A stretch of DNA of 18,567 nucleotides from contig CAYRFV010000092.1 of NCBI GenBank assembly GCA_964423545.1, positions 1 to 18,567 on the forward strand, in the 5' to 3' direction. A model generated the notes under the pieces. That model did no database searches, had not been told where the DNA came from, and saw nothing but the letters and a program-made list of their open reading frames with translations. The position numbers were made by a program, and so were the translations under genes. Positions 2,714 through 18,567 of this stretch are shown here, piece by piece. This DNA is from an uncultured Anaerolineales bacterium (GTDB lineage: Bacteria; Chloroflexota; Anaerolineae; CG2-30-64-16). Positions within the stretch are counted from its first letter, which is position 1; each line of letters begins with the position of its first letter.

Positions 2714-3772
2714 ATGAACACCATGTTTGGCGCTTTCGTCATTGCACTGCTGCTGGGTGGGATGGTTGCGTTCTTGATCATTCTTGCCACCGGACGGAAC
2801 AACAAGCCCAACTACCAGTCGGCGACGCGTGTCGGACTGGTCGTGCTCCTGGTGGTTTTCGCGGCCAGCGCGCTGATGGATGCCTTCACGCAGGTGGAGG
2901 CCGGGTCGGTGGCCGTGGTCAAGCAGTTTGGTCAGGTGGTCGGCGTCTTCTACCCCGGCCTGAACCTGAAAATGCCGTTCATCCAGCAGACCGTGCCATA
3001 TCGAACGCAGGAGATCATCTACGAAACGAGCGAGGACCCCAAGACGAGCCAGGCCAACTACAAGGATATCGAGGTGGACACTGCCACGGCCGACGGCCAG
3101 CAGATCCGGGCGCGCTTCACGATCCGCTTCCGCATCGACCCTACTCGGGTGATTGAGATCGTCAACAACCTGGGCACCGAGCCTGAGGTGGTGGAAAAGG
3201 TGGTCAAAGCCACCAGCCGCGTCCACGTGCGCAACATTCTGAAGCAGCACTCGGCCACCGATCTCTATTCGGGCAACGTGGAGCGAGCCCAGGAGGAGAT
3301 CCGCCAGCGGCTGGATACCGAGTTCGGCCATGCCGGCCTGCAGCTCATCTTCTTCGGCCTGCGCTCGATTCACTTCGAGCCGGAGTATATCAAGGCCGTC
3401 GAACAGAAGCAGATCGAGAAAGAGAACATCACGACCAAGGAGAACCTGGCCAAGCAGGCCGAGTTCGAAAAGCAGCGCACGATCACGCAGGCGCAGGGCG
3501 ACGCAGAGCGCGAGAAGCTGCAGCGCATCGGCCAGGCCCAGGGTGAGGCGGAGGCCATTCGCGTGAAGGCCATCGCCGACGCCGAGGCGACCCGCATCAA
3601 GGCGCAGGCGCAGGCGGAAGCGAACAAGCTGATAGCCCAGAGCCTCGATCCCAACGTGATCAACTGGCAGGCGATCCAGCAGTGGAGCGGGCAATATCCG
3701 ACGGTGATGGGTGCGGGAGGGAGCTTCATCCTGCCCGGAGATCTGTTCAAAGCGCCGGCGCCAAGCAAGTAG
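2714..3772 (+). CDS. SPFH/band 7 domain membrane protein (HflC/flotillin-like) with a C-terminal Ala/Glu/Gln-rich coiled-coil repeat region
   Basis: AAGGAG lies 8 nt upstream of the ATG. The protein has an N-terminal transmembrane segment (FGAFVIALLLGGMVAFLIILA). The SPFH core includes 'AVVKQFGQVVGVFYPGLNLKMPFIQQ', 'YETSEDPKTSQANYKDIEVDTATADGQQIRARFTIRFRIDP' and 'FGLRSIHFEPEYIKAVEQKQ'. The C-terminus has repeats such as 'QAQGDAEREKLQRIGQAQGEAEAIRVKAIADAEATRIKAQAQAEA'. Confidence 0.85.
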   Translation: MNTMFGAFVIALLLGGMVAFLIILATGRNNKPNYQSATRVGLVVLLVVFAASALMDAFTQVEAGSVAVVKQFGQVVGVFYPGLNLKMPFIQQTVPYRTQEIIYETSEDPKTSQANYKDIEVDTATADGQQIRARFTIRFRIDPTRVIEIVNNLGTEPEVVEKVVKATSRVHVRNILKQHSATDLYSGNVERAQEEIRQRLDTEFGHAGLQLIFFGLRSIHFEPEYIKAVEQKQIEKENITTKENLAKQAEFEKQRTITQAQGDAEREKLQRIGQAQGEAEAIRVKAIADAEATRIKAQAQAEANKLIAQSLDPNVINWQAIQQWSGQYPTVMGAGGSFILPGDLFKAPAPSK

Positions 3773-3784
3773 TCTGCGAAACTC

Positions 3785-3813
3785 TTGACAATGACCTGCT
3801 AAAGTATTATACT
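3785..3813 (+). promoter_or_regulatory. near-consensus sigma70 promoter TTGACA-N17-TATACT upstream of the J-protein gene; the -10 overlaps the palindrome AGTATtATACT
   Basis: cTTGACAatgacctgctaaagtatTATACTcc is the best promoter match in the window and sits about 40 nt upstream of the start at 3857. Confidence 0.55.
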
Positions 3814-3856
3814 CCAGTCAGGCACGCGGAAGATCGATGCGGTTGGGGAGCGGTGT

Positions 3857-4804
3857 ATGGAGTATAAAGACTACTACAAGACGCTGGGCGTTGAGAAGAG
3901 TGCGGACGAGAAAGAGATCAAGAAAGCCTATCGGCGGCTTGCGCGCCAGTATCATCCTGATGTGAACCCTGGCGACAAAGCCGCCGAAGCCCGTTTTAAA
4001 GAGATCAACGAGGCCTACGAGGTGCTCAGCGATGCCGAGAAACGCCGCAAATACGACGAACTCGGGCAAAGCTATCAGCGCTGGCAGCAGATGGGTGGCG
4101 GATCGGGCGGCTTTGATTGGAACCAATGGGCGGCCAGGGGCGGAACGGGTGGCGCACGCGTCTCATACGGCGACATCAACGATCTCTTTGCGCAGGGGGG
4201 CTTCTCCGATTTCTTCGAAGCGATCTTCGGCGGAATGAGTGCGGCCGCACAGGGGCGGGAAGCTGAGACTGCCAGCAGGGTCCGCGGCCATGATCTCGAG
4301 CACGAGGTTGAGGTTTCCCTCGAAGAGGCATTTCGCGGTGCGCAGCGCCTGGTGGAAATGGACGGTCGCCGGCTGGAAGTCAAAATCCCTGCGGGCGTCA
4401 AGACGGGCTCACGCGTGCGCGTGGCGGGCGAAGGCCCGGCAACCGCAAGCCGGGGCGCGGCTCGCGGCGACCTTTACCTCCGCATCAAAGTGCTGCCGCA
4501 CCCTACATTCGAGCGCCGCGACGACGATCTGCACTGCGAAGCCCCTGTCGATCTTTTCGTCGCACTGTTAGGTGGTGAGGTGCGCGTGCCGACGCTGTCG
4601 GGATCCGTTGCGCTGCGCATCCCCGCCGGCACGCAGTCGGGGCGCACCTTTCGGCTTTCGGGACAAGGCATGCCCAGGCTGCGCTCGCCGCAGGAGCACG
4701 GCGATCTTTATGCCAGGGTACGCGTGATGCTGCCCGAAAAGCTGGACGACCACGAACAGAAACTTGTGCGTGAGTGGGCGGCGCTGCGGGGAAGGAACGC
4801 CTGA
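3857..4804 (+). CDS. cbpA: J-domain co-chaperone of the CbpA type (DnaJ-like, lacks the Cys-rich zinc-finger region)
   Basis: The J-domain '[36 protein letters not shown]' carries the HPD motif and is followed by '[19 protein letters not shown]'. A Gly/Phe-rich linker (GGGSGGFDW...[13 protein letters not shown]) comes next. The two DnaJ C-terminal beta-domains are present (e.g. '[19 protein letters not shown]', '[46 protein letters not shown]'). No CxxCxGxG repeats occur, so the architecture is CbpA rather than DnaJ. Confidence 0.85.
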
Positions 4805-5098
4805 ACTGAGCGCAGGACGAAACCTGCCTGGCCGGATGCCACCGTGTCATTCCAGCGCACGCGGGAATCCGGGCCCAGTTGCTAAACATTCGCATTCGCA
4901 TGTGCGACGCGCGATGAAAGCCGCGCACTGGCGGACATCGGGAGTCTGAGGTTTTCAAGCTGGAACCTGTTTGGTGCGCCCAGGTCGAGGCGACATCACC
5001 CTGCGTCGACCCACGGGCGGCCCGACTGGACGCATGCTCATTCCATCCAGCCCGTTCGCCTTCAAGCGCAGCACATTACCACTTCACCTAGGTGCGCC

Positions 5099-6655
5099 AT
5101 GTCGTCTACGCCAGACACCTGGAATGAGCCTCGCTACGCCATCGGCGCCGTCGCCGCGATGCTTGCGTTGCATCCGCAGACGCTGCGCCGCTACGAGGAG
5201 CTCGGCCTGTTGGTGCCCGCTCGCAAGGCGGGCCGCCGTCTCTATTCCCCGCGCGAGGTGGAACTCCTCCGCTCTATCTCCCGTCTGAGCAGCCAACTCG
5301 GTCTTAACATGGCCGGCGTAGAAGTGATTCTGCGCCTCAACCAGCGCATCAACGAGCTGCAGAGCGAAGTCGACATCCTCCAGGGTGCGCGCACCAGCCT
5401 CGAAGAGCAGATTGCCACCCTGAAGGAGGAGTTACGCCAGGCGCAAGTGCATTCCTCACTTCGATCGAGTATTCCGACGATCGAACAGCCCAAGGCGGCT
5501 CCCAGAGCCACCCTATCTTCGGGCGGATCGCCACGCCCGCTATTCAAGACAGGAGCGTCTACCATGATGCAAGAACGCGATTTGCAGGAACTGGCCGAAC
5601 TGAAGAGCGCCACTGCTCCCATCCTGAGCCTGTATCTGAATGCAGACCCGCATCGTCGCTCCAGTGAAGAGCACAAGCTCTCGCTGCGCAGACTGCTGTC
5701 CCAGGCAGCCAACCAGGGCGCAGCACAGGCCGATGTCGAGCGCATCGAACGCTTCTTTGAGCACGAATACAATCGGCAGGGACGCGGCGTTGCCTGCTTC
5801 AGCCAGCAGAAGCTGGGATTCTGGCGGGAATACGAGCTTCTGGTTCCCGTCGAAGATTTCGTGTTCCTCGGCCAGCGACCCTACATCTTTCCGTTAAGCG
5901 ACATCTGGGATAACTACGGCCGGTTCGGCGTGCTCATGGTCGACCGAGAGGGCGCCCGGGCCTTCATCTATCACCTCGGCGCGCTCGAAGATTCGGCCGG
6001 CACCCTGGGCGAGGAGGTCAAGCGGCACAAGCAGGGTGGCTGGGCCGCGCAGAAACTGCAACGGTATGAAGATCAGGCGGCTGCGCACAATCTCAAGGGA
6101 GCAGCGGCCTGGGCTGATGATTTCCTGCGCGAGCGCAACGTCGAGCGCGTGGTCCTTTCCGGCAGCGATGGCAACCTGGCCCTGTTTCGCGATCTCGCCC
6201 CCCGCGCGCTTCAGGACAAAGTCATCGGCCAGATCAACCTGGACATGAACACCACGCCCGTTGAGGTTTGGGAGCATGCTTTTCTGGTGGCGCAGGCCGC
6301 TCAGCGGCGAGCGGAAAGCGATCTGTTGCAGCAAGTGGTGACTGCGGCGCGCAAGGGCGGCGCCGGAGCGACAGGCCTGACCGACACGTTGGCTGCGATG
6401 CAGGCGAACCGAATCCACCAGTTGCTCGTGGATCGCAATTTGCACGCTGCGGGCAATCAATGCGCCAACTGCGGCGCACTGGTGGTCGATCCACTCAAAA
6501 CGTGCCCCTACTGCAACGGCAAACTAGCTGCCACTGCCGATGTCGTCAATCTGGTGCTCAGCCGGGCGACCGAAACCGGCGTCAAAGTGGCCGTCCTGGA
6601 GCCCAGCTCGCAGCTTACCGAGGTCGGCGGGATCGCGGCCGTGCTGCGATATTGA
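5099..6655 (+). CDS. hspR: fusion protein: N-terminal HspR-like MerR-family heat-shock repressor (aa 1 to ~115), Ser/Pro-rich linker, C-terminal eRF1/Pelota-superfamily three-domain module (aa ~156-518) with GGW in place of GGQ and a Cys4 zinc ribbon
   Basis: The N-terminus 'YAIGAVAAMLALHPQTLRRYEELGLLVPARKAGRRLYSPREVELLRSISRLSSQLGLNMAGVEVILRLNQRINELQ' follows the HspR HTH pattern (Streptomyces HspR has ...LHPQTLRQYDRLGLVSP...RRYS..DIELLR...). The C-terminal module is colinear with eukaryotic eRF1. Domain-1-like segment: 'LQELAELKSATAPILSLYLNADP...GVACFSQQ...VEDFVFLGQRPYIFPL'. Domain-2-like segment: 'GRFGVLMVDREGARAFIY...KRHKQGGWAAQKLQRY' (compare eRF1 'KKHGRGGQSALRFARLR') and 'VVLSGSDGNLALFRDLAPRALQDKVIGQINLD' (compare eRF1 '[31 protein letters not shown]'). 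Domain-3-like segment: 'TGLTDTLAAMQANRIHQLLVD' and the C-terminal 'EVGGIAAVLRY' (compare eRF1 'GGIGGILRY'). There are no in-frame stops across the junction. Confidence 0.75.
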   Translation: MSSTPDTWNEPRYAIGAVAAMLALHPQTLRRYEELGLLVPARKAGRRLYSPREVELLRSISRLSSQLGLNMAGVEVILRLNQRINELQSEVDILQGARTSLEEQIATLKEELRQAQVHSSLRSSIPTIEQPKAAPRATLSSGGSPRPLFKTGASTMMQERDLQELAELKSATAPILSLYLNADPHRRSSEEHKLSLRRLLSQAANQGAAQADVERIERFFEHEYNRQGRGVACFSQQKLGFWREYELLVPVEDFVFLGQRPYIFPLSDIWDNYGRFGVLMVDREGARAFIYHLGALEDSAGTLGEEVKRHKQGGWAAQKLQRYEDQAAAHNLKGAAAWADDFLRERNVERVVLSGSDGNLALFRDLAPRALQDKVIGQINLDMNTTPVEVWEHAFLVAQAAQRRAESDLLQQVVTAARKGGAGATGLTDTLAAMQANRIHQLLVDRNLHAAGNQCANCGALVVDPLKTCPYCNGKLAATADVVNLVLSRATETGVKVAVLEPSSQLTEVGGIAAVLRY

Positions 6656-6818
6656 GCCGTCGTGTGTTGTGTCGTGTCGAGGCGTTTGCATTGCGTTAGA
6701 GGATTGCGCTTTGTAGCCGCTCCTACACCGAGGGCTTTGGCCCGGTGATATGGTAAGATTGAGCGAGCGGACCGATGAAGAAGCTCGTACGATGCAACTC
6801 AGATGAGGTTGGGTGGAT

Positions 6819-9326
<2,508 letters not shown>

Positions 9327-9335
9327 GGCTGACGC

Positions 9336-9375
9336 CAGGAGCTGGACGCGACTATGAGCCGGCGTCCAGCTCCTG
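9336..9375. terminator. perfect 14-bp inverted repeat (CAGGAGCTGGACGC / GCGTCCAGCTCCTG, 12-nt loop) between convergent clpC and psuG; candidate bidirectional terminator overlapping the psuG stop codon
   Basis: The left arm is 9336..9349 and the right arm 9362..9375. The clpC stop is 9324..9326 and the psuG stop is 9352..9354 (minus). There is no U-tract. Confidence 0.45.
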
Positions 9376-10356
9376 CCTAGCAGCCAGCGCCAGCGCAATC
9401 TGCGCGCCGATGGCCGCGTTGTTCTCCAGCAACGCCAGGTTCGCACGCAGGCTGGTCTCCCCGGTCAGTTCGCTGATCCTGGCCAACAAGAACGGCGTCA
9501 GCGCCTTGCCCTTGACCTCTTGCGCTTCCGCCTCCTCCAGCGCCTGGTCGACCGCACTCTCCATCCGCTCTGCGGGCAGCTCGAACTGAGCGGGAACGGG
9601 CGCCGTCACCAACATGCCGCCTGGCAATCCTAACGCCCGCTGGGCCCGAAACAGCGCAACGACCTCGTCAGGCGTGTCGGCTCGCACGTCGACCGGCAAC
9701 CCGCTCGAACGATGATAGAACGCCGGAAAGTCATCGGTCCCATAGCCGACCACGGTCACACCGTATGTCTCCAGCCATTCCAGCGTTGCGGGCAGGTCAA
9801 GAATCGCCTTGGCGCCTGCGCATACGACGATGAGGGGGGTTTGCGCCAGCTCAGGGAGGTCGGCCGAGATATCGGTCGACAGAAAGCTGAATGTTGGTCG
9901 CTGAATGCTCGATGCCGGATGCCGGATGGCGGACGACGGGGCGGCATTGCCACGGCTCCTGCGACCCGCGGCCGACCCCATGCTGCCCCCCTCCAACTTC
10001 CAGCTTCCAGCCCTGTGCACCCCGCCGATGCCGCCGGTAGCGAACACCCGAATGCCGGCGCGGTGCGCAGCCCAGGCGGTCGTGGCGACGGTCGTGGCGC
10101 CGTCCAGCTTGCGCGCAACGACAATCGGCAGATCGCGGCGGCTGACCTTGCGCACGTCCGGCGCGGTCGCCAGATGCTCGATCTGGCCTCGACTCAGGCC
10201 GACCACGATCTCGCCGGCGATGATGCCGATCGTAGCAGGCGTCGCGCCGTGCTCAGCCACGATCTCCTCCAGCCGGAGCGCCAGCCGCAGGTTGTGCGGG
10301 TAAGGCAGGCCGTGGGAGATGACGGTGGATTCGAGGGCGACGACTGGTTGTACCAT
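9352..10356 (-). CDS. psuG: pseudouridine-5'-phosphate glycosidase (IndA/YeiN family) carrying a 38-aa in-frame low-complexity insertion
   Basis: The N-terminal 'VVALESTVISHGLPYPHN' matches the YeiN family. Other family motifs are 'KVSRRDLPIVVA', 'ATTVA', 'FATGGIGGVHR', 'DISADLPELAQTPLIVVCAGAKAILDL', 'TLEWLETYGVTVVGYGTD' and 'TPFLLARISELTGGETSL'. Between 'GGVHRAG' and 'STDISADL' an extra segment SWKLEGGSMGSAAGRRSRGNAAPSSAIRHPASSIQRPTFSFL occurs where E. coli YeiN has only 'AEHTF'. Confidence 0.85.
   Translation of the reverse strand: MVQPVVALESTVISHGLPYPHNLRLALRLEEIVAEHGATPATIGIIAGEIVVGLSRGQIEHLATAPDVRKVSRRDLPIVVARKLDGATTVATTAWAAHRAGIRVFATGGIGGVHRAGSWKLEGGSMGSAAGRRSRGNAAPSSAIRHPASSIQRPTFSFLSTDISADLPELAQTPLIVVCAGAKAILDLPATLEWLETYGVTVVGYGTDDFPAFYHRSSGLPVDVRADTPDEVVALFRAQRALGLPGGMLVTAPVPAQFELPAERMESAVDQALEEAEAQEVKGKALTPFLLARISELTGETSLRANLALLENNAAIGAQIALALAARQELDAGS
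9893..10006 (-). other. in-frame insertion of about 114 bp inside psuG containing short tandem repeats (gccggat x2 at 9914..9927; cttccag x2 at 9996..10009)
   Basis: The boundaries come from aligning the encoded protein against the PsuG family pattern by eye. The inserted DNA is low complexity with direct repeats. The edges are uncertain to about +/-10 bp. Confidence 0.5.
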
Positions 10357-10549: not shown

Positions 10550-11578
10550 TTATTCGCGATCTTTGCGGCGCACCCATGCGCGTTCTATCGCATTCGTGAC
10601 CTCTGGGTGTATCCGGATGCTGTCGATAGTGACATGGCGAATTTCGGTTCCCCAGTCTCCGGTCTTCTTGTTGGCCTCAACCCGGATCTGCTGCTCCAGA
10701 CCCTCATGATTGCGGGCAGCGGCGAGATCACAGACACCTTGCAGGTTGAGTTGCTGCCTGATCGCACGTTCAAGCGCTCGTCGCGTGGCGGTTTCCAGAT
10801 CAGGTTGGGCCTTTCCTAGCGCCAGGATTGAGTCTGGATCCAACAACAGCAGGACCTTGCCGGCAGCGTCTTTCACCGACTTTCGTCTGACGCCGTAAGA
10901 CGCCGATATCTGCGCTGAGCATACCATGCTCTCTTGGGTCAAGATATCATCCAGTCCTACGGTTAGCTGCTTGTCGCGGACGTCATACACAGCCTCCACT
11001 GACTCGTGTCCTCCGATCACCGCTGGTTGCATCAGCACCTTGGGCGTGCTGCCTGGTGCGCCCTTGACGATCACAGCACTACCGGTGTCAATCCGGAGCC
11101 GTCGAGGACCCTTGACCGGAATCGCGAGCGAGGCAGAAGCCAGTTTGCCATTGCTGACACGAACGTCCCCGCCAATCTTGCCCAGGGCGAGCTGCAAATG
11201 ATGCTCAAGCGCCGCGGAGGACTTTCCATCATAGAGATCGCGCTGAAGGTAGGCAGAGAACCAGAACACGACGATACTTGCCAGCAACACCCCAAGGGCG
11301 ACGGTCCATGGACCGATTACTACCATCAGCAGCAGGATCGCCAAGAGTAGCAGCAGGAACCCCAACCGCTTGTCCCCGCGCCTGGAAGCCAGAAGTATGA
11401 AGATGCTGGCAAGCAGAGGCGTACCGATGAGAAAGCCGGCGGGAGCCCATGATAGCTCCGGCTGGAGTTCAACCGAAATCTGCTTGAGTAGGAAATCCAC
11501 CCCGAGCAGTAGTATAGCTGTTCCTACAGTCAGAGCCACCAGCAGAACCGCGACCTCAGGTGCGTGGCGCGTGGCCAT
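10550..11578 (-). CDS. membrane protein with four N-terminal TM helices and a C-terminal divergent SPFH/band-7-like domain
   Basis: GAGGAG lies 6 nt upstream of the ATG at 11578. The hydrophobic N-terminus spans aa 9 to ~118. The C-terminal segment 'ETATRRALERAIRQQLNLQGVCDLAAARNHEGLEQQIRVEANKKTGDWGTEIRHVTIDSIRIHPEVTNAIE' resembles the SPFH C-terminal consensus (...WGI.V..V.I.DI.LP.EV..AM). Confidence 0.55.
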   Translation of the reverse strand: MATRHAPEVAVLLVALTVGTAILLLGVDFLLKQISVELQPELSWAPAGFLIGTPLLASIFILLASRRGDKRLGFLLLLLAILLLMVVIGPWTVALGVLLASIVVFWFSAYLQRDLYDGKSSAALEHHLQLALGKIGGDVRVSNGKLASASLAIPVKGPRRLRIDTGSAVIVKGAPGSTPKVLMQPAVIGGHESVEAVYDVRDKQLTVGLDDILTQESMVCSAQISASYGVRRKSVKDAAGKVLLLLDPDSILALGKAQPDLETATRRALERAIRQQLNLQGVCDLAAARNHEGLEQQIRVEANKKTGDWGTEIRHVTIDSIRIHPEVTNAIERAWVRRKDRE

Positions 11579-15260: not shown

Positions 15261-15905
15261 TTGCTGGATATCAACAGCCTGATTGATCCATCCACATTGC
15301 TTGCGCTGGCAATCATCCTGCTGGTGAGCTTCCCTGTGCATGAGTTCGCGCACGCATGGGTGGCCTACCGACTCGGAGACGACACGGCGGCGCAGCAAGG
15401 CCGGCTCTCCCTGAATCCGCTCCGCCACCTCGATCCGCTCGGCTCGATCCTGTTGATCGCCACGCAGGCGTTCGGCTGGGCGAAACCTGTGCCGGTGGCG
15501 CCCTGGCGCTTACGACATGGCCCCCGCGCCGGTCACGCCCTGGTGTCGCTTGCCGGGCCGATCAGCAACCTGCTGATGGCGGCCGGCGTGGCTGCGGTGT
15601 GGCGCACGGGTCTGCTGGAGCGCCTGCCGGTCGATCTGGATCTGACCGTATTCATCTTCGTTTCGATCAACATCACGCTGTTTCTGTTCAATCTGATCCC
15701 ACTGGGACCGCTGGACGGATTCAGCGTGCTGAACGGCATCGTCGATGCGCGCACGTCCCAGGTGCTGCAGCCGCTGTCCACCTATGGGCCGTTTATTCTG
15801 ATGGGCCTGCTCCTCTTGGGCAATGTAGCGCCGGGCTTCAACCTCGTGGGGCGTTTCCTGGCCGAGGGGACACAAGTCGCGATGCGGCTGTTGCTCGGAT
15901 ACTGA
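15261..15905 (+). CDS. site-2 protease family (peptidase M50) intramembrane zinc metalloprotease
   Basis: A TTG start follows an in-frame TAA at 15246, with GGAG 6 nt upstream. The HExxH motif is in the TM helix 'LLVSFPVHEFAHAWV'. The second metal-ligand motif is 'NLIPLGPLDGFSVL' (LDG). Confidence 0.8.
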   Translation: MLDINSLIDPSTLLALAIILLVSFPVHEFAHAWVAYRLGDDTAAQQGRLSLNPLRHLDPLGSILLIATQAFGWAKPVPVAPWRLRHGPRAGHALVSLAGPISNLLMAAGVAAVWRTGLLERLPVDLDLTVFIFVSINITLFLFNLIPLGPLDGFSVLNGIVDARTSQVLQPLSTYGPFILMGLLLLGNVAPGFNLVGRFLAEGTQVAMRLLLGY

Positions 15906-16462
15906 TGGGCGCCAACCGCCCACGGCGGGTCATCTACCGCGTTCGCCAGTTCTTCCGGGTCCTGACCGATGGCTTCAAACCGCTGACCCCGGAAGAGCGG
16001 CGCACTGCCTGGAAGCATCTGCCTGAGACGGCGCACCGCCTGTACGACGCCATGCCGTGCGCCGACCAGCGACACAGCCTGAGAGTGCTGCACACACTGA
16101 CGGCTGCCGGGCACGACGAGCCGGCCTTGTTGCAGGCGGCGCTGCTGCACGATTGCGCCAAGCGTGAAGCGGGCATCCGCATCTGGCATCGGGTCGCGCT
16201 GGTGTTGCTGAAGACATTCTGGCCGCGCATGGCCATGCGCTGGGAAGCCGATCCGGCCCCGGCGCGCATGGACTGGCGCTATCCTATGCGGGCGCAGCTA
16301 CATCACCCGGAACGCGGCGCCGCGCTCGCGGCCGCGGCGGGGTGCGATCCGCTGGCTGTCACGCTGATTCGGCGGCACCAGGATCCGCGTGCCTCATGCG
16401 CCTCCGATCCGATCACGGACCGGCTGGTAGCGGCCCTCCAGGCCGCTGACGACGACAACTAG
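15905..16462 (+). CDS. HD-domain protein (putative metal-dependent phosphohydrolase), translationally coupled to the M50 gene
   Basis: The ATG at 15905 overlaps the M50 TGA stop (cTGATGg). The 185-aa protein has 'HSLRVLHTL...' and 'AALLHDCAKRE' (His...His-Asp...Lys pattern of HD domains, compare 'ALLHDIGK'). The track's 368-aa ORF starting at 15356 is an out-of-frame upstream extension over the M50 gene. Confidence 0.55.
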   Translation: MGANRPRRVIYRVRQFFRVLTDGFKPLTPEERRTAWKHLPETAHRLYDAMPCADQRHSLRVLHTLTAAGHDEPALLQAALLHDCAKREAGIRIWHRVALVLLKTFWPRMAMRWEADPAPARMDWRYPMRAQLHHPERGAALAAAAGCDPLAVTLIRRHQDPRASCASDPITDRLVAALQAADDDN

Positions 16463-17510: not shown

Positions 17511-18567
17511 TCAACGGTCCATTGCGAACAGATGAACGCTTGCGCCCGGCAGCCTGAGCTGATCAGCGGCCGCGCCGTAGCGCGCCAGGTGCCGCAAGAT
17601 GAAGGCTTCTTCGTCGCCTTCGCTGCCCGTGTGCACGTGGGAGAACAACAGCCAGACGCGTCCTTTGCCGCGCAGCGTCTCGACATCCTCAAGATACCTC
17701 TGCGGATTTGATCGGCCATAGCGTCCCCTGACATAGTTGGATGAATCGAAACCGTACATGGGCGCGTAATATCGGAACGCGTGCTCGGCGCCGTAGTAGA
17801 CGTAGATGCTGTCATCGGGTTGGCGGTGGGCCTGCACATACGCCAGGGCCGGCCGGAGGTGCTCGCCCATCGGCGGCGCAAGGAACTTGTTGGCCGCGTT
17901 CATGCTCGGCTCCCAGAGCAGGATCACAGACAACAGCACCCAGACGCCCGTCGCGAAGGGGCCGGTCTGCCGCAACGCCAGGCGCACCCCCTCCAACCCG
18001 GCGCCGATCGCAATGAGCAGGCTGGGTACGGCGAACAGCAACAGACGTCCGCCAAACGGGTACATGCGCGCCGCCGATGCCGCGAGCGCCAGCAACAGGG
18101 GGAGGAACAACGCGACTGCCCAGGGCGGTCGCCGTCGCGCCAGCAAGACCGCACCCGAGAGCCCGAGGAGCAGCCCGAGCGACCCTGCTGAAAGCCCCGC
18201 AGGATTCACGAAGAGATTACGCAGTGCATCAAGCACCCATTGCAGATGAGCCCAGGGCGGCATCGGCATGAACGCCGGCTGCCAGAAAGCAAGCAGTCCC
18301 CTGCTCGCGGTCAGGTGGCGCAGCGAGGTAAGGTAAAGCAGACCGAAGCTGGCACTCCATACCAGTCCAGGCAGCATCAGCCGGCGGAGTCCGCGGCGAT
18401 CTTTGCGCGCGAAACTGGAGACAAACAGCGCAACGCCGATGCTGGCTAGCACGAACGCGGCTGGATGAGCGGCCCACAGCGCAAGCGCGCCGCCGAATGT
18501 CAAGAGCAGATAGCCCCTCGGCGCTCCACGCCCCTCCAGGTGAGGCGCGGCAGCCAGGTAGAGCAGC
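17511..18567 (-). CDS. polytopic membrane protein, C-terminal part (reading frame is open to the window end); possibly the ArnT/PMT-like glycosyltransferase (GT39/GT83) or a related family
   Basis: The minus-strand frame stays open through 18567 (LLYLAAAPHLEGRGAPRGYLLLTFGGALALWAA...). It has multiple hydrophobic helices followed by a soluble C-terminal domain (...YVYYGAEHAFRYYAPMYGF...). The family assignment is a guess. Confidence 0.5.
   Translation of the reverse strand, partial: LLYLAAAPHLEGRGAPRGYLLLTFGGALALWAAHPAAFVLASIGVALFVSSFARKDRRGLRRLMLPGLVWSASFGLLYLTSLRHLTASRGLLAFWQPAFMPMPPWAHLQWVLDALRNLFVNPAGLSAGSLGLLLGLSGAVLLARRRPPWAVALFLPLLLALAASAARMYPFGGRLLLFAVPSLLIAIGAGLEGVRLALRQTGPFATGVWVLLSVILLWEPSMNAANKFLAPPMGEHLRPALAYVQAHRQPDDSIYVYYGAEHAFRYYAPMYGFDSSNYVRGRYGRSNPQRYLEDVETLRGKGRVWLLFSHVHTGSEGDEEAFILRHLARYGAAADQLRLPGASVHLFAMDR

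Follow-up and report, generated by a model that had tools for sequence, protein, structure and literature searches.

What is a heat-shock repressor doing in one reading frame with a translation-factor-like module? The question is raised by a 518-aa open reading frame (ORF) in an 18,567-nt stretch of DNA from an uncultured Anaerolineales bacterium (contig CAYRFV010000092.1; the whole stretch is hereafter called the window). Read directly in the window sequence, the ORF runs uninterrupted from ATG to TGA at 5099–6655 on the + strand and joins a MerR/HspR winged helix and dimerization helix (residues 1–122), through a 35-aa linker predicted to be disordered, to a complete three-domain aeRF1-like module (residues 156–518). 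An earlier note made from the sequence had proposed just such an in-frame union of an HspR-type MerR repressor and a complete module of the aeRF1 superfamily, and the Pfam, NCBIfam, PDB and Foldseek comparisons reported here bear that description out. It is a real, lineage-specific fusion of adjacent heat-shock operon genes by loss of a stop codon; as to its meaning, on balance we lean towards a tolerated read-through that would give two products. The ORF is laid out as follows.

5099–5449, + strand: HspR part, residues 1–117, assigned from Pfam/NCBIfam matches and the AlphaFold model, with a ratio of non-synonymous to synonymous substitution rates (dN/dS) of 0.09 between fused lineages.
5450–5452, + strand: codon CAT of His118, the putative stop-loss site, standing opposite the TAG that ends hspR in the sister lineage.
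5450–5563, + strand: linker, residues 118–155, Ser/Pro/Ala-rich and predicted to be disordered, formerly the spacer between hspR and the balon-type gene.
5564–6655, + strand: Balon-type aeRF1-like module, residues 156–518, with N, M and C domains, assigned from Pfam baeRF_family10, NCBIfam, PDB and Foldseek matches.

The AlphaFold model of the 518-aa protein (mean predicted local distance difference test score, pLDDT, of 76) was built from alignment A5; alignment A4 was discarded because short HspR sequences had been wrongly placed onto the Balon region. It comprises a winged helix-turn-helix (HTH), a long dimerization helix continuous over residues 71–122 (pLDDT up to 87), a disordered segment at 123–153 (pLDDT <50), in the linker that had already been described as Ser/Pro-rich, and the three-domain module at 156–518 (pLDDT 70–90). 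The HspR domain of this model rests on two sequences only.

Profile searches recover MerR_1 and HspR at the N-terminus and baeRF_family10 and aRF1_eRF1 at the C-terminus, as the earlier note had anticipated. Residues 13–79 match Pfam MerR_1 (E 1.1e-14, 54.7 bits; cutoff 21.6), with MerR and MerR_2 also above cutoff, and the best MerR subfamily is NCBIfam HspR (NF047375; residues 11–95, E 2.1e-25), at 88.5 bits, which is below the curated equivalog cutoff of 105. The MerR winged HTH and coiled-coil helix are shared with HspR of Streptomyces, Mycobacterium, Helicobacter and Campylobacter, and a homologue so named from Cryptosporangium arvum is 44% identical. Standalone HspR orthologues are mostly 112–123 aa long and end just past the dimerization helix. 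The C-terminal tail of M. tuberculosis HspR binds DnaK and serves as a degron (PMC10415612), whereas Anaerolineae HspRs are nearly tailless and the HspR C-terminus in the window bears a 40-kDa domain.

The identity of that domain follows from several comparisons. It matches Pfam baeRF_family10 at residues 261–394 (113.2 bits against a cutoff of 27.1), the family to which Msmeg1130 is itself assigned (124.5 bits with the same model). Pfam eRF1_3 gives a weak match at residues 406–518, NCBIfam aRF1_eRF1 aligns end to end (residues 162–518 to model positions 9–401 of 403, E 5.5e-13), and the NCBIfam model of the MSMEG_1130 family of hibernation factors spans residues 159–518 (E 2e-25). The top sequence match in the PDB is Balon Msmeg1130 (8v9j_z, E 3.6e-16, query residues 5–363 to chain residues 7–375), followed by aRF1 (4af1). 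Foldseek against the PDB also ranks Msmeg1130/Balon first (8v9l_z, E 5.7e-24, template modelling (TM) score of 0.72 normalized to the target), and then aRF1, eRF1, P. urativorans Balon, Rv2629 and Pelota/Dom34; the leading entries are 8v9l_z, 8v9j_z, 4af1, 8rdv_B and 8v9k_z.

Balon homologues occur in ~20% of representative bacteria and are known from ribosome-bound structures determined by cryo-electron microscopy, in which they occupy the ribosomal A site independently of mRNA and together with EF-Tu-GDP; their genes sit in chaperone and stress operons with Hsp20, DnaK and DnaJ (PMC10901736). The description of bacterial eRF1 homologues as rare and poorly characterized, from which the earlier note had started, can therefore no longer be upheld: since the best sequence and fold matches of the module are to a ribosome-bound hibernation factor, the family has ceased to be uncharacterized. 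In common with Balon (P. urativorans Balon, Msmeg1130 and Rv2629; 8rd8, 8v9j, 8v9k and 8v9l), the module has three aeRF1-like domains, no GGQ or NIKS and a place in a chaperone/stress operon with DnaJ, and these structures are its best structural matches (TM 0.64–0.73 normalized to the target). It differs in being only ~23% identical to them and, in the window clade, in being translated as a C-terminal extension of HspR; its ribosome binding is predicted only. Judged by sequence, it is a homologue and not an equivalog of the characterized hibernation factors, and the most economical reading is that of a Balon-type factor that would be induced alongside chaperones.

The comparison with release factors is more divided. 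aRF1/eRF1 and Pelota/Dom34 have the same three-domain fold and domain order. Also shared are a loop that contains GG and leads into a basic helix, in the place of GGQ, the C-terminal 'G.AA.LRY' signature and, with aRF1, a zinc ribbon in the C domain. The stretches homologous to eRF1 blocks read 'VVLSGSDGNLALFRD...QDKVIGQINLD' and 'VGGIAAVLRY'; the strings 'VLAGSADFK...QSKVLKLVD' and 'GGIGGILRY' that had been quoted for this protein are those of eukaryotic eRF1 and are absent from it. Against the aRF1/eRF1 equivalog TIGR03676, the module scores 48.5 bits (cutoff 234.7), and its N domain is only ~105 aa. Neither a GGQ nor a NIKS string occurs in the protein sequence, and there is no YxCxxxF-type decoding motif. 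What had been taken for a GGQ loop reads KRHKQGGWAAQK, with Trp in place of the GGQ glutamine (KQGGWAAQ). Two elements of the module bear on its activity.

6026–6043, + strand: loop HKQGGW, residues 310–315, aligned with the eRF1 GGQ loop.
6461–6514, + strand: zinc ribbon CxxC-N10-CxxC (C455, C458, C469 and C472), an insert in the C domain whose four cysteines are invariant in alignment A5.

Within the loop, H310, G313 and G314 do not vary, K311, Q312 and W315 are also found in most relatives, and most family-10 representatives follow the consensus (K/R)H-KQGGW. Residues of the helix downstream of the loop, including Q321-R322, are invariant among close relatives. Pfam zinc-ribbon models match the cysteine-bearing insert weakly. 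Either a zinc ribbon or a two-strand insert, regarded as a possible degenerate ribbon, has been described at this site of the C domain (PMC6514570), and Balon's C-terminal domain has been described with an EF-Tu-binding β-hairpin insert (PMC10901736); from the former account we infer that the ribbon would lie where Balon has its hairpin. The host presumably has its own bacterial RF1/RF2, because baeRF-1 proteins never displaced them (PMC6514570); RF1/RF2 genes are not visible within the window.

Is the continuous frame genuine? The contrary view, in which two real genes only look joined because a stop was erased or the frame displaced by faulty assembly or sequencing, is scarcely credible on the evidence now at hand, even though close relatives do carry a stop at the aligned position and some members of the relevant 90% cluster are listed as 363 aa. 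The homologue search covered a collection of 5.8 billion proteins. Nearly all homologues are standalone 363-aa proteins that start exactly at ORF residue 156; more than 100 such orthologues, at 61–80% identity, begin with MMQERDL or a close variant. The only fused proteins in the initial search were the window's own and P0002 (520 aa, 83% identical), and the 90% cluster of P0002 holds more fused members, of 517–520 aa, from several JGI and ENA samples. In all, at least nine distinct fused sequences, the window included, come from independent metagenome assemblies, which disposes of the assembly error that the earlier note had wanted excluded. They occur in three lengths (517, 518 and 520 aa), every one in frame, and the continuous ORF recurs in short-read assemblies of several independent samples with linkers that differ in sequence and length.

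The members of the P0002 cluster listed at 363 aa that were examined are L004, L005, L030 and L031. L004 and L005 differ from the fused L006 by 1 nt in a C run; their assemblies have many broken genes, and L006 comes from the same sample as L004. Their split appearance is due to long-read homopolymer errors. The contigs of L030 and L031 break off upstream of the internal ATG, at distances of 115 and 35 nt, with the frame open to the contig end, and on such truncated contigs the gene callers picked the internal ATG. Because the fusion recurs in independent assemblies and the 363-aa members that were checked are artefacts, an artefact specific to the window is excluded.

The fusion is young and belongs to a single shallow clade of Anaerolineae. 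Conservation in related genomes, as raised in the earlier note, thus extends to the sequences of that clade, whereas elsewhere among the relatives examined the genes are split or hspR is missing. No protein combining MerR and baeRF10 appeared in the top 150 of an exhaustive representative search, in which fused minorities elsewhere could be hidden, given that the window's 50% cluster probably has one of its 363-aa proteins as representative. A search with HspR plus linker returned only standalone HspRs, mostly of 96–164 aa (two weak ones of 217 and 267 aa); having missed P0001 and P0002, both of which contain the query, it was not used as evidence on the absence of other fusions. A 619-codon open frame in L029 was rejected as a fusion, since the protease-like ORF in its upstream part is a gene apart and the Balon homologue uses its own ATG. 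P0135, a 408-aa protein returned by the representative search, couples 210 N-terminal residues of baeRF10 type, with 82% identity to the Balon-type module, to Sigma70 regions 2–4; it was set aside as probably a chimeric contig or a frameshifted gene call. In agreement with the earlier note, no fusion of HspR or MerR to baeRF/Balon was found described in the literature, as far as it is text-searchable, figures excluded.

How, then, did the two genes come to be joined? The closest split relative, L001, is a 94-kb JGI contig of the sister lineage (77–80% identity) with the same gene order as the window, namely band-7, dnaJ and an hspR of 117 aa and then, after a spacer of 93 nt, the 363-aa gene and clpB. 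In DNA alignments A1 and A2, which are somewhat ambiguous at this point, the TAG of L001 and L002 stands opposite CAT (5450–5452) in the window and CAA in L003; the lost stop is thereby placed upstream of 5540–5570, where the junction had previously been sought. The remaining spacer is recognizably homologous between L001 and the window, including a GGGCGT-loop-ACGCCC hairpin and the ACAGGAGCGT-N6-ATGATG block. Since the L001 spacer is already free of stops and in frame with the downstream gene, a single stop-codon substitution would suffice for fusion. In a neighbour-joining tree of HspR and Balon, the fused sequences are monophyletic with the split L001 as their sister, which argues for a single fusion event.

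The wider sampling agrees with this polarity. All 23 loci from GTDB reference genomes (Chloroflexota metagenome-assembled genomes, mostly Anaerolineae) are unfused: seven have split hspR and factor genes in varying relative frames, and at least 13 have dnaJ-factor-clpB without any hspR. The split state consists of an HspR of 115–143 aa and a 363-aa factor, the HspR ORF being 115–120 aa in most split loci. At the upper end, L014 (3980–4411) encodes an HspR of 143 aa in another frame than the Balon gene; it reads through most of the spacer, hairpin included, ends 17 nt short of the Balon ATG and is an intermediate state. The point in the spacer at which hspR stops has thus been labile in evolution, with the window clade as the extreme case. 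Because the sister lineage and all 23 reference loci have a stop or lack hspR, two adjacent genes are, on this sampling, the ordinary state, from which the window clade has recently departed by losing the stop. The suspicion that orthologues would reveal a stop between two ordinary genes accordingly holds for those relatives and fails for the fused clade, which is genuinely continuous. On this account, the stop of hspR would have been lost and the ~110-nt spacer, by chance in frame and stop-free, would have been translated through into the downstream gene.

The former spacer retains two elements that bear on what is made from the locus.

5551–5569, + strand: internal translation start, comprising the Shine–Dalgarno (SD) sequence AGGAG (5551–5555), an 8-nt spacer and ATG ATG (5564–5569); start of the ancestral 363-aa gene.
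5521–5538, + strand: stem-loop or palindrome GGGCG(G/T)-loop-ACGCCC within the linker, inherited from the spacer, with two stem positions mismatched in the window.

The sequence AGGAGCGT-N5/6-ATGAT is invariant in 13/13 split and fused loci compared, and a 14-nt block, CAAGACAGGAGCGT, is identical in the window and L003 despite divergence at ~35% of linker sites. With the ancestral AGGAG-N8-ATG start still in place, initiation within the ORF at 5564 probably persists, so that the free 363-aa factor would be made alongside the 518-aa protein. The strings ATLSSGGSPRPLFK and TGASTMMQER span the junction of the latter, and the free factor begins with MMQER or MQER.

In the hspR-containing loci that were aligned (L001, L003, L006–L010, L012 and L014), split and fused alike, the hairpin lies 25–45 nt upstream of the ATG of the Balon-type gene; its GGCG/CGCC core is conserved and one outer pair covaries (GC 7, CG 2, AU 1). 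It might act in the processing or stability of the mRNA or be bound by a protein. An RNA thermometer hiding the SD sequence was considered and rejected: the fold of 5490–5600 gave z = -1.74, which is not significant, and the alignment fold supports just the short GGCG/CGCC hairpin with its one covarying pair. The conserved content of the linker lies at the nucleotide level and is older than the fusion.

Selection on the encoded protein was assessed by comparing the window lineage with L003 and L006, the fused lineages being separated by a dS of 0.6–0.8. dN/dS is 0.09 in the HspR part and 0.13–0.14 in the Balon part, against 0.55–0.84 in the linker. Values of ~0.1 in both halves as opposed to 0.55–0.84 between them indicate that both domains are functional and that the linker is almost unconstrained as protein, and pseudogenization of either half is rejected on the same grounds.

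The setting of the fused gene is a chaperone cluster, whose other main features are these.

3784–3813, + strand: sigma-70-type promoter TTGACA-17-TATACT (11/12 positions; promoter proper 3785–3813) with an overlapping element resembling the HspR-associated inverted repeat (HAIR).
3857–4804, + strand: dnaJ/cbpA-like gene, first of the operon, with J domain and DnaJ_C and no zinc-finger domain, assigned from Pfam and NCBIfam.
6819–9326, + strand: clpB-type disaggregase gene, last of the cluster; its ORF opens with GTG at 6813, ATG at 6819 being the likelier start.

The first gene matches Pfam DnaJ (2.8e-29) and DnaJ_C (1.1e-45) and the NCBIfam curved-DNA-binding protein/CbpA model (1e-65), and its position is conserved in all related loci. 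The last, which the earlier note had called clpC, is of clpB type, with NCBIfam ClpB as top match (1109.7 bits) and Pfam Clp_N, AAA, AAA_lid_9, AAA_2 and ClpB_D2-small domains. The window shares the order dnaJ/cbpA, hspR, balon-type gene, clpB with the 11 related hspR-containing loci whose length takes in the flanking genes. A scan of 3600–9600 gave the promoter upstream of dnaJ as the sole strong match and no terminator-like site between the cluster genes.

Overlapping the −35 to −10 region of that promoter is CTTGACA-N7-GCTAAAGTA at 3784–3806. CTTGACA-N7-RCTAAAGT is present in a single copy in the window and in every one of the 11 hspR-containing loci covering the region upstream of dnaJ (12/12); the 15 hspR-lacking loci covering it have none, and their promoters keep the hexamers and not the spacer motif. 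HAIR has the sequence CTTGAGT-N7-ACTCAAG, and cbpA-hspR operons such as that of H. pylori, in which hspR likewise comes after a cbpA/dnaJ-type gene, are autoregulated via a HAIR-like site at the promoter (PMC6102357). The window motif, CTTGACA-N7-GCTAAAG, differs from HAIR at 4 of 14 positions; from its distribution and location it is a candidate HspR operator, which would extend the parallel with the H. pylori arrangement. An inverted-repeat scan of three intergenic regions gave nothing convincing, and Rfam had no match over the whole window at the gathering threshold.

A working scheme can be put together from these observations and from family knowledge. The usual Anaerolineae operon, dnaJ/cbpA, hspR, balon-type gene and clpB, would be transcribed from one promoter with a HAIR-like operator and repressed by HspR at the dnaJ promoter. 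Proteotoxic stress would lift the repression, and DnaJ/CbpA, ClpB and the Balon-type factor would increase together. The factor would then take up the A site of ribosomes that are vacant or stalled and keep these silent and protected as the chaperones clear the damage. In the window clade, two products are expected from the fused gene: a 57-kDa HspR-linker-Balon protein, dimerizing via the HspR helix and carrying the aeRF1-like module in the position of an effector domain, and the original 40-kDa factor, initiated at 5564.

Whether the fusion has a purpose of its own is a separate matter. MerR-family regulators carry effector domains after the dimerization helix, and the module lies in just this position. 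The fused protein could then be a selected sensor and effector, its Balon module docking on vacant or stalled ribosomes or on EF-Tu-GDP and so pulling HspR dimers off the operator at the dnaJ promoter; conversely, DNA-bound HspR might possibly retain a pool of the factor. We regard such a selected device, which corresponds to the ribosome-titration model of the earlier note, as unlikely. It would account for the retention of the frame in every fused sequence, at three linker lengths and over a dS of ~0.7, and it finds company in the independent fusions of zf-HC2 anti-sigma domains to baeRF_family10 beside ECF (extracytoplasmic function) sigma and chaperone genes and in the SigE-HPF fusions reported for another hibernation factor (bioRxiv 10.1101/2025.11.04.686544). 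Yet the fusion is limited to one shallow clade while other relatives keep separate genes, the linker is nearly neutral and holds no conserved protein motif beyond the RNA-level SD sequence and hairpin, most of the factor is probably free owing to the preserved internal start, and nothing points to co-evolution of the two domains. Because the linker is nearly neutral and the internal SD sequence and ATG are kept, the fusion need not be a dedicated sensor; most likely the lability of the HspR C-terminus has given rise to it as a by-product that is tolerated and brings a mild benefit at most.

Independently of how the fusion is read, the module might be a catalytic or rescue factor of the A site, acting as a peptidyl-tRNA hydrolase on heat-stalled ribosomes, which we consider doubtful and somewhat improbable. 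Burroughs and Aravind singled out family 10 of baeRF-1 for its conserved Gln and its length-constrained catalytic loop as a possible hydrolase (PMC6514570). The HKQGGW loop, which has an invariant GG and is conserved across most family-10 representatives, the invariant Q321-R322 of close relatives and the retained aRF1-type zinc ribbon are in keeping with that suggestion, and NCBI names one orthologue a 'Vms1/Ankzf1 family peptidyl-tRNA hydrolase'. Telling against it are the Trp at the position of the GGQ glutamine, the lack of NIKS and YxCxxxF-type decoding motifs, and the fact that the closest relatives in sequence and structure are the non-catalytic Balons Msmeg1130 and Rv2629, the former itself a member of family 10.

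Our preferred reading, a tolerated fusion carrying a Balon-type hibernation factor, also has observations against it. The module scores far below the NCBIfam equivalog cutoffs for both MSMEG_1130 (89.6 against 480 bits) and Rv2629 (67.1 against 320 bits), and it keeps the HKQGGW loop and the zinc ribbon, both of which are absent from Msmeg1130, where the loop departs from the family consensus and the stretch of the ribbon contains no Cys. Given this loop and ribbon, the term 'hibernation factor' is an extrapolation inside Pfam family 10. At the promoter, canonical HAIR has no match in the window within 3 mismatches. Finally, the frame is kept at all three linker lengths with no verified revertant over a dS of ~0.7, which hints at selection for the fusion itself; the hint is only suggestive, the test being a weak one with 2–3 indel events, and a random 37-codon frame at 63% GC is open about one-third of the time.

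Other unions of family-10 modules with regulators put the locus in a broader context. Five family-10 representatives with N-terminal extensions (P0164, P0170, P0214, P0215 and P0226) carry zf-HC2, an anti-sigma-type zinc finger, N-terminal to a complete baeRF_family10 module. Two of the loci were examined, and in both the fusion gene (L032, 4001–5446, P0170; L034, 1977–3356, P0164) lies directly downstream of an ECF-type sigma gene; the order is sigma, fusion, HSP20, DoxX, FtsH and DnaJ in L032, and DnaJ, MerR/HspR-like, sigma and fusion in L034. The Balon modules of these two are 32–33% identical to that of the window. As in the window protein, a family-10 module is joined via its N-terminus to a domain of transcription control in a chaperone neighbourhood, whereas the partner is a sigma-sequestering zinc finger instead of a DNA-binding repressor. 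The zf-HC2-baeRF10 architecture was not found described in the literature, within the same limits as above. Chimeric HPF hibernation factors (SigE-HPF, Csp-HPF and CBS-HPF) have been reported (bioRxiv 10.1101/2025.11.04.686544) and set a precedent for joining a hibernation factor to a stress-response or transcription protein, though with an unrelated HPF/RaiA fold, another ribosomal site and other fusion partners.

Because anti-sigma fusions occur beside ECF sigma genes in chaperone loci, the idea of a sensor gains some plausibility. In its general form, that Balon-type (baeRF family 10) modules are translation-state sensors wired to heat-shock transcription, via HspR here or zf-HC2 elsewhere, we hold it to be quite improbable. 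If it were true, docking on the ribosome or on EF-Tu-GDP would free DNA of its repressor or release a sigma factor, and ribosome occupancy itself would become a signal for chaperone genes.

HspR repressors, Balon-type hibernation factors and the presence of Balon genes in chaperone operons were already known. New are the Anaerolineae Balon-type gene inside an HspR-type heat-shock operon (dnaJ/cbpA, hspR, balon, clpB) and the occurrence, in one clade, of repressor and predicted ribosome-binding factor as one polypeptide that has stayed intact over a dS of ~0.7. Taken together, the two kinds of regulator-Balon fusion suggest the hypothesis that hibernation or rescue is physically linked to proteostasis transcription in some bacteria. 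Its significance is raised by the recurrence of the architecture and lowered by the narrow distribution, the neutral linker and a family that is no longer obscure. The window lineage and L001 form a natural pair of fused and split loci, ready-made for comparison, and even if neutral, the case would remain a clean, datable gene fusion by stop-codon loss that keeps the internal start. The labels now given to this protein disagree ('MerR regulator', 'peptide chain release factor subunit 1', 'Vms1/Ankzf1 hydrolase'), an inconsistency that should caution annotators.

Some further features of the locus were recorded. Two ORFs, of 368 aa (15356–16462, + strand) and 330 aa (17511–18503, − strand), have no Pfam match at E ≤ 1e-5. 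The intergenic region between dnaJ and hspR (4805–5098) is 294 nt long in the window as against ~10–125 nt in relatives; in L001 and L004–L006 this spacer consists of short AACGTT/AACGTG-type repeats, with a variant in L003, and the window is without them. Upstream of clpB lies another conserved element.

6682–6727, + strand: GCGTTTGCATTGCGTTAGAGG followed by the hairpin TTTGTAG-N6-CTACA, similar in many related loci.

In many Anaerolineae, the conserved element reads GCGTTTGCnTTGCGTTAGAGG with a TGTAGG-N4-6-CCTACA hairpin after it, at loci with or without hspR, and has no Rfam match; it may be a clpB-specific promoter, an operator or a structure of the 5' untranslated region. Between the Balon-type gene and clpB, L004, L006, L010 and L030 carry runs of TGCGT-type repeats (e.g. 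GTATTGCGTGTTGCGTAGTGCGTG ... CGCACTACGCAATACGTG), which form long-range inverted repeats flanking the region upstream of clpB; the window has only a degenerate version at 6655–6680. The chaperone cluster is flanked by Band-7/SPFH genes at 2714–3772 (+ strand) and 10550–11578 (− strand) and by an indigoidine-synthase-A-like gene of the pseudouridine-5'-phosphate glycosidase family at 9352–10356 (− strand). Since the flanking genes recur in L001, L004 and L006, the wider locus is syntenic across the clade.

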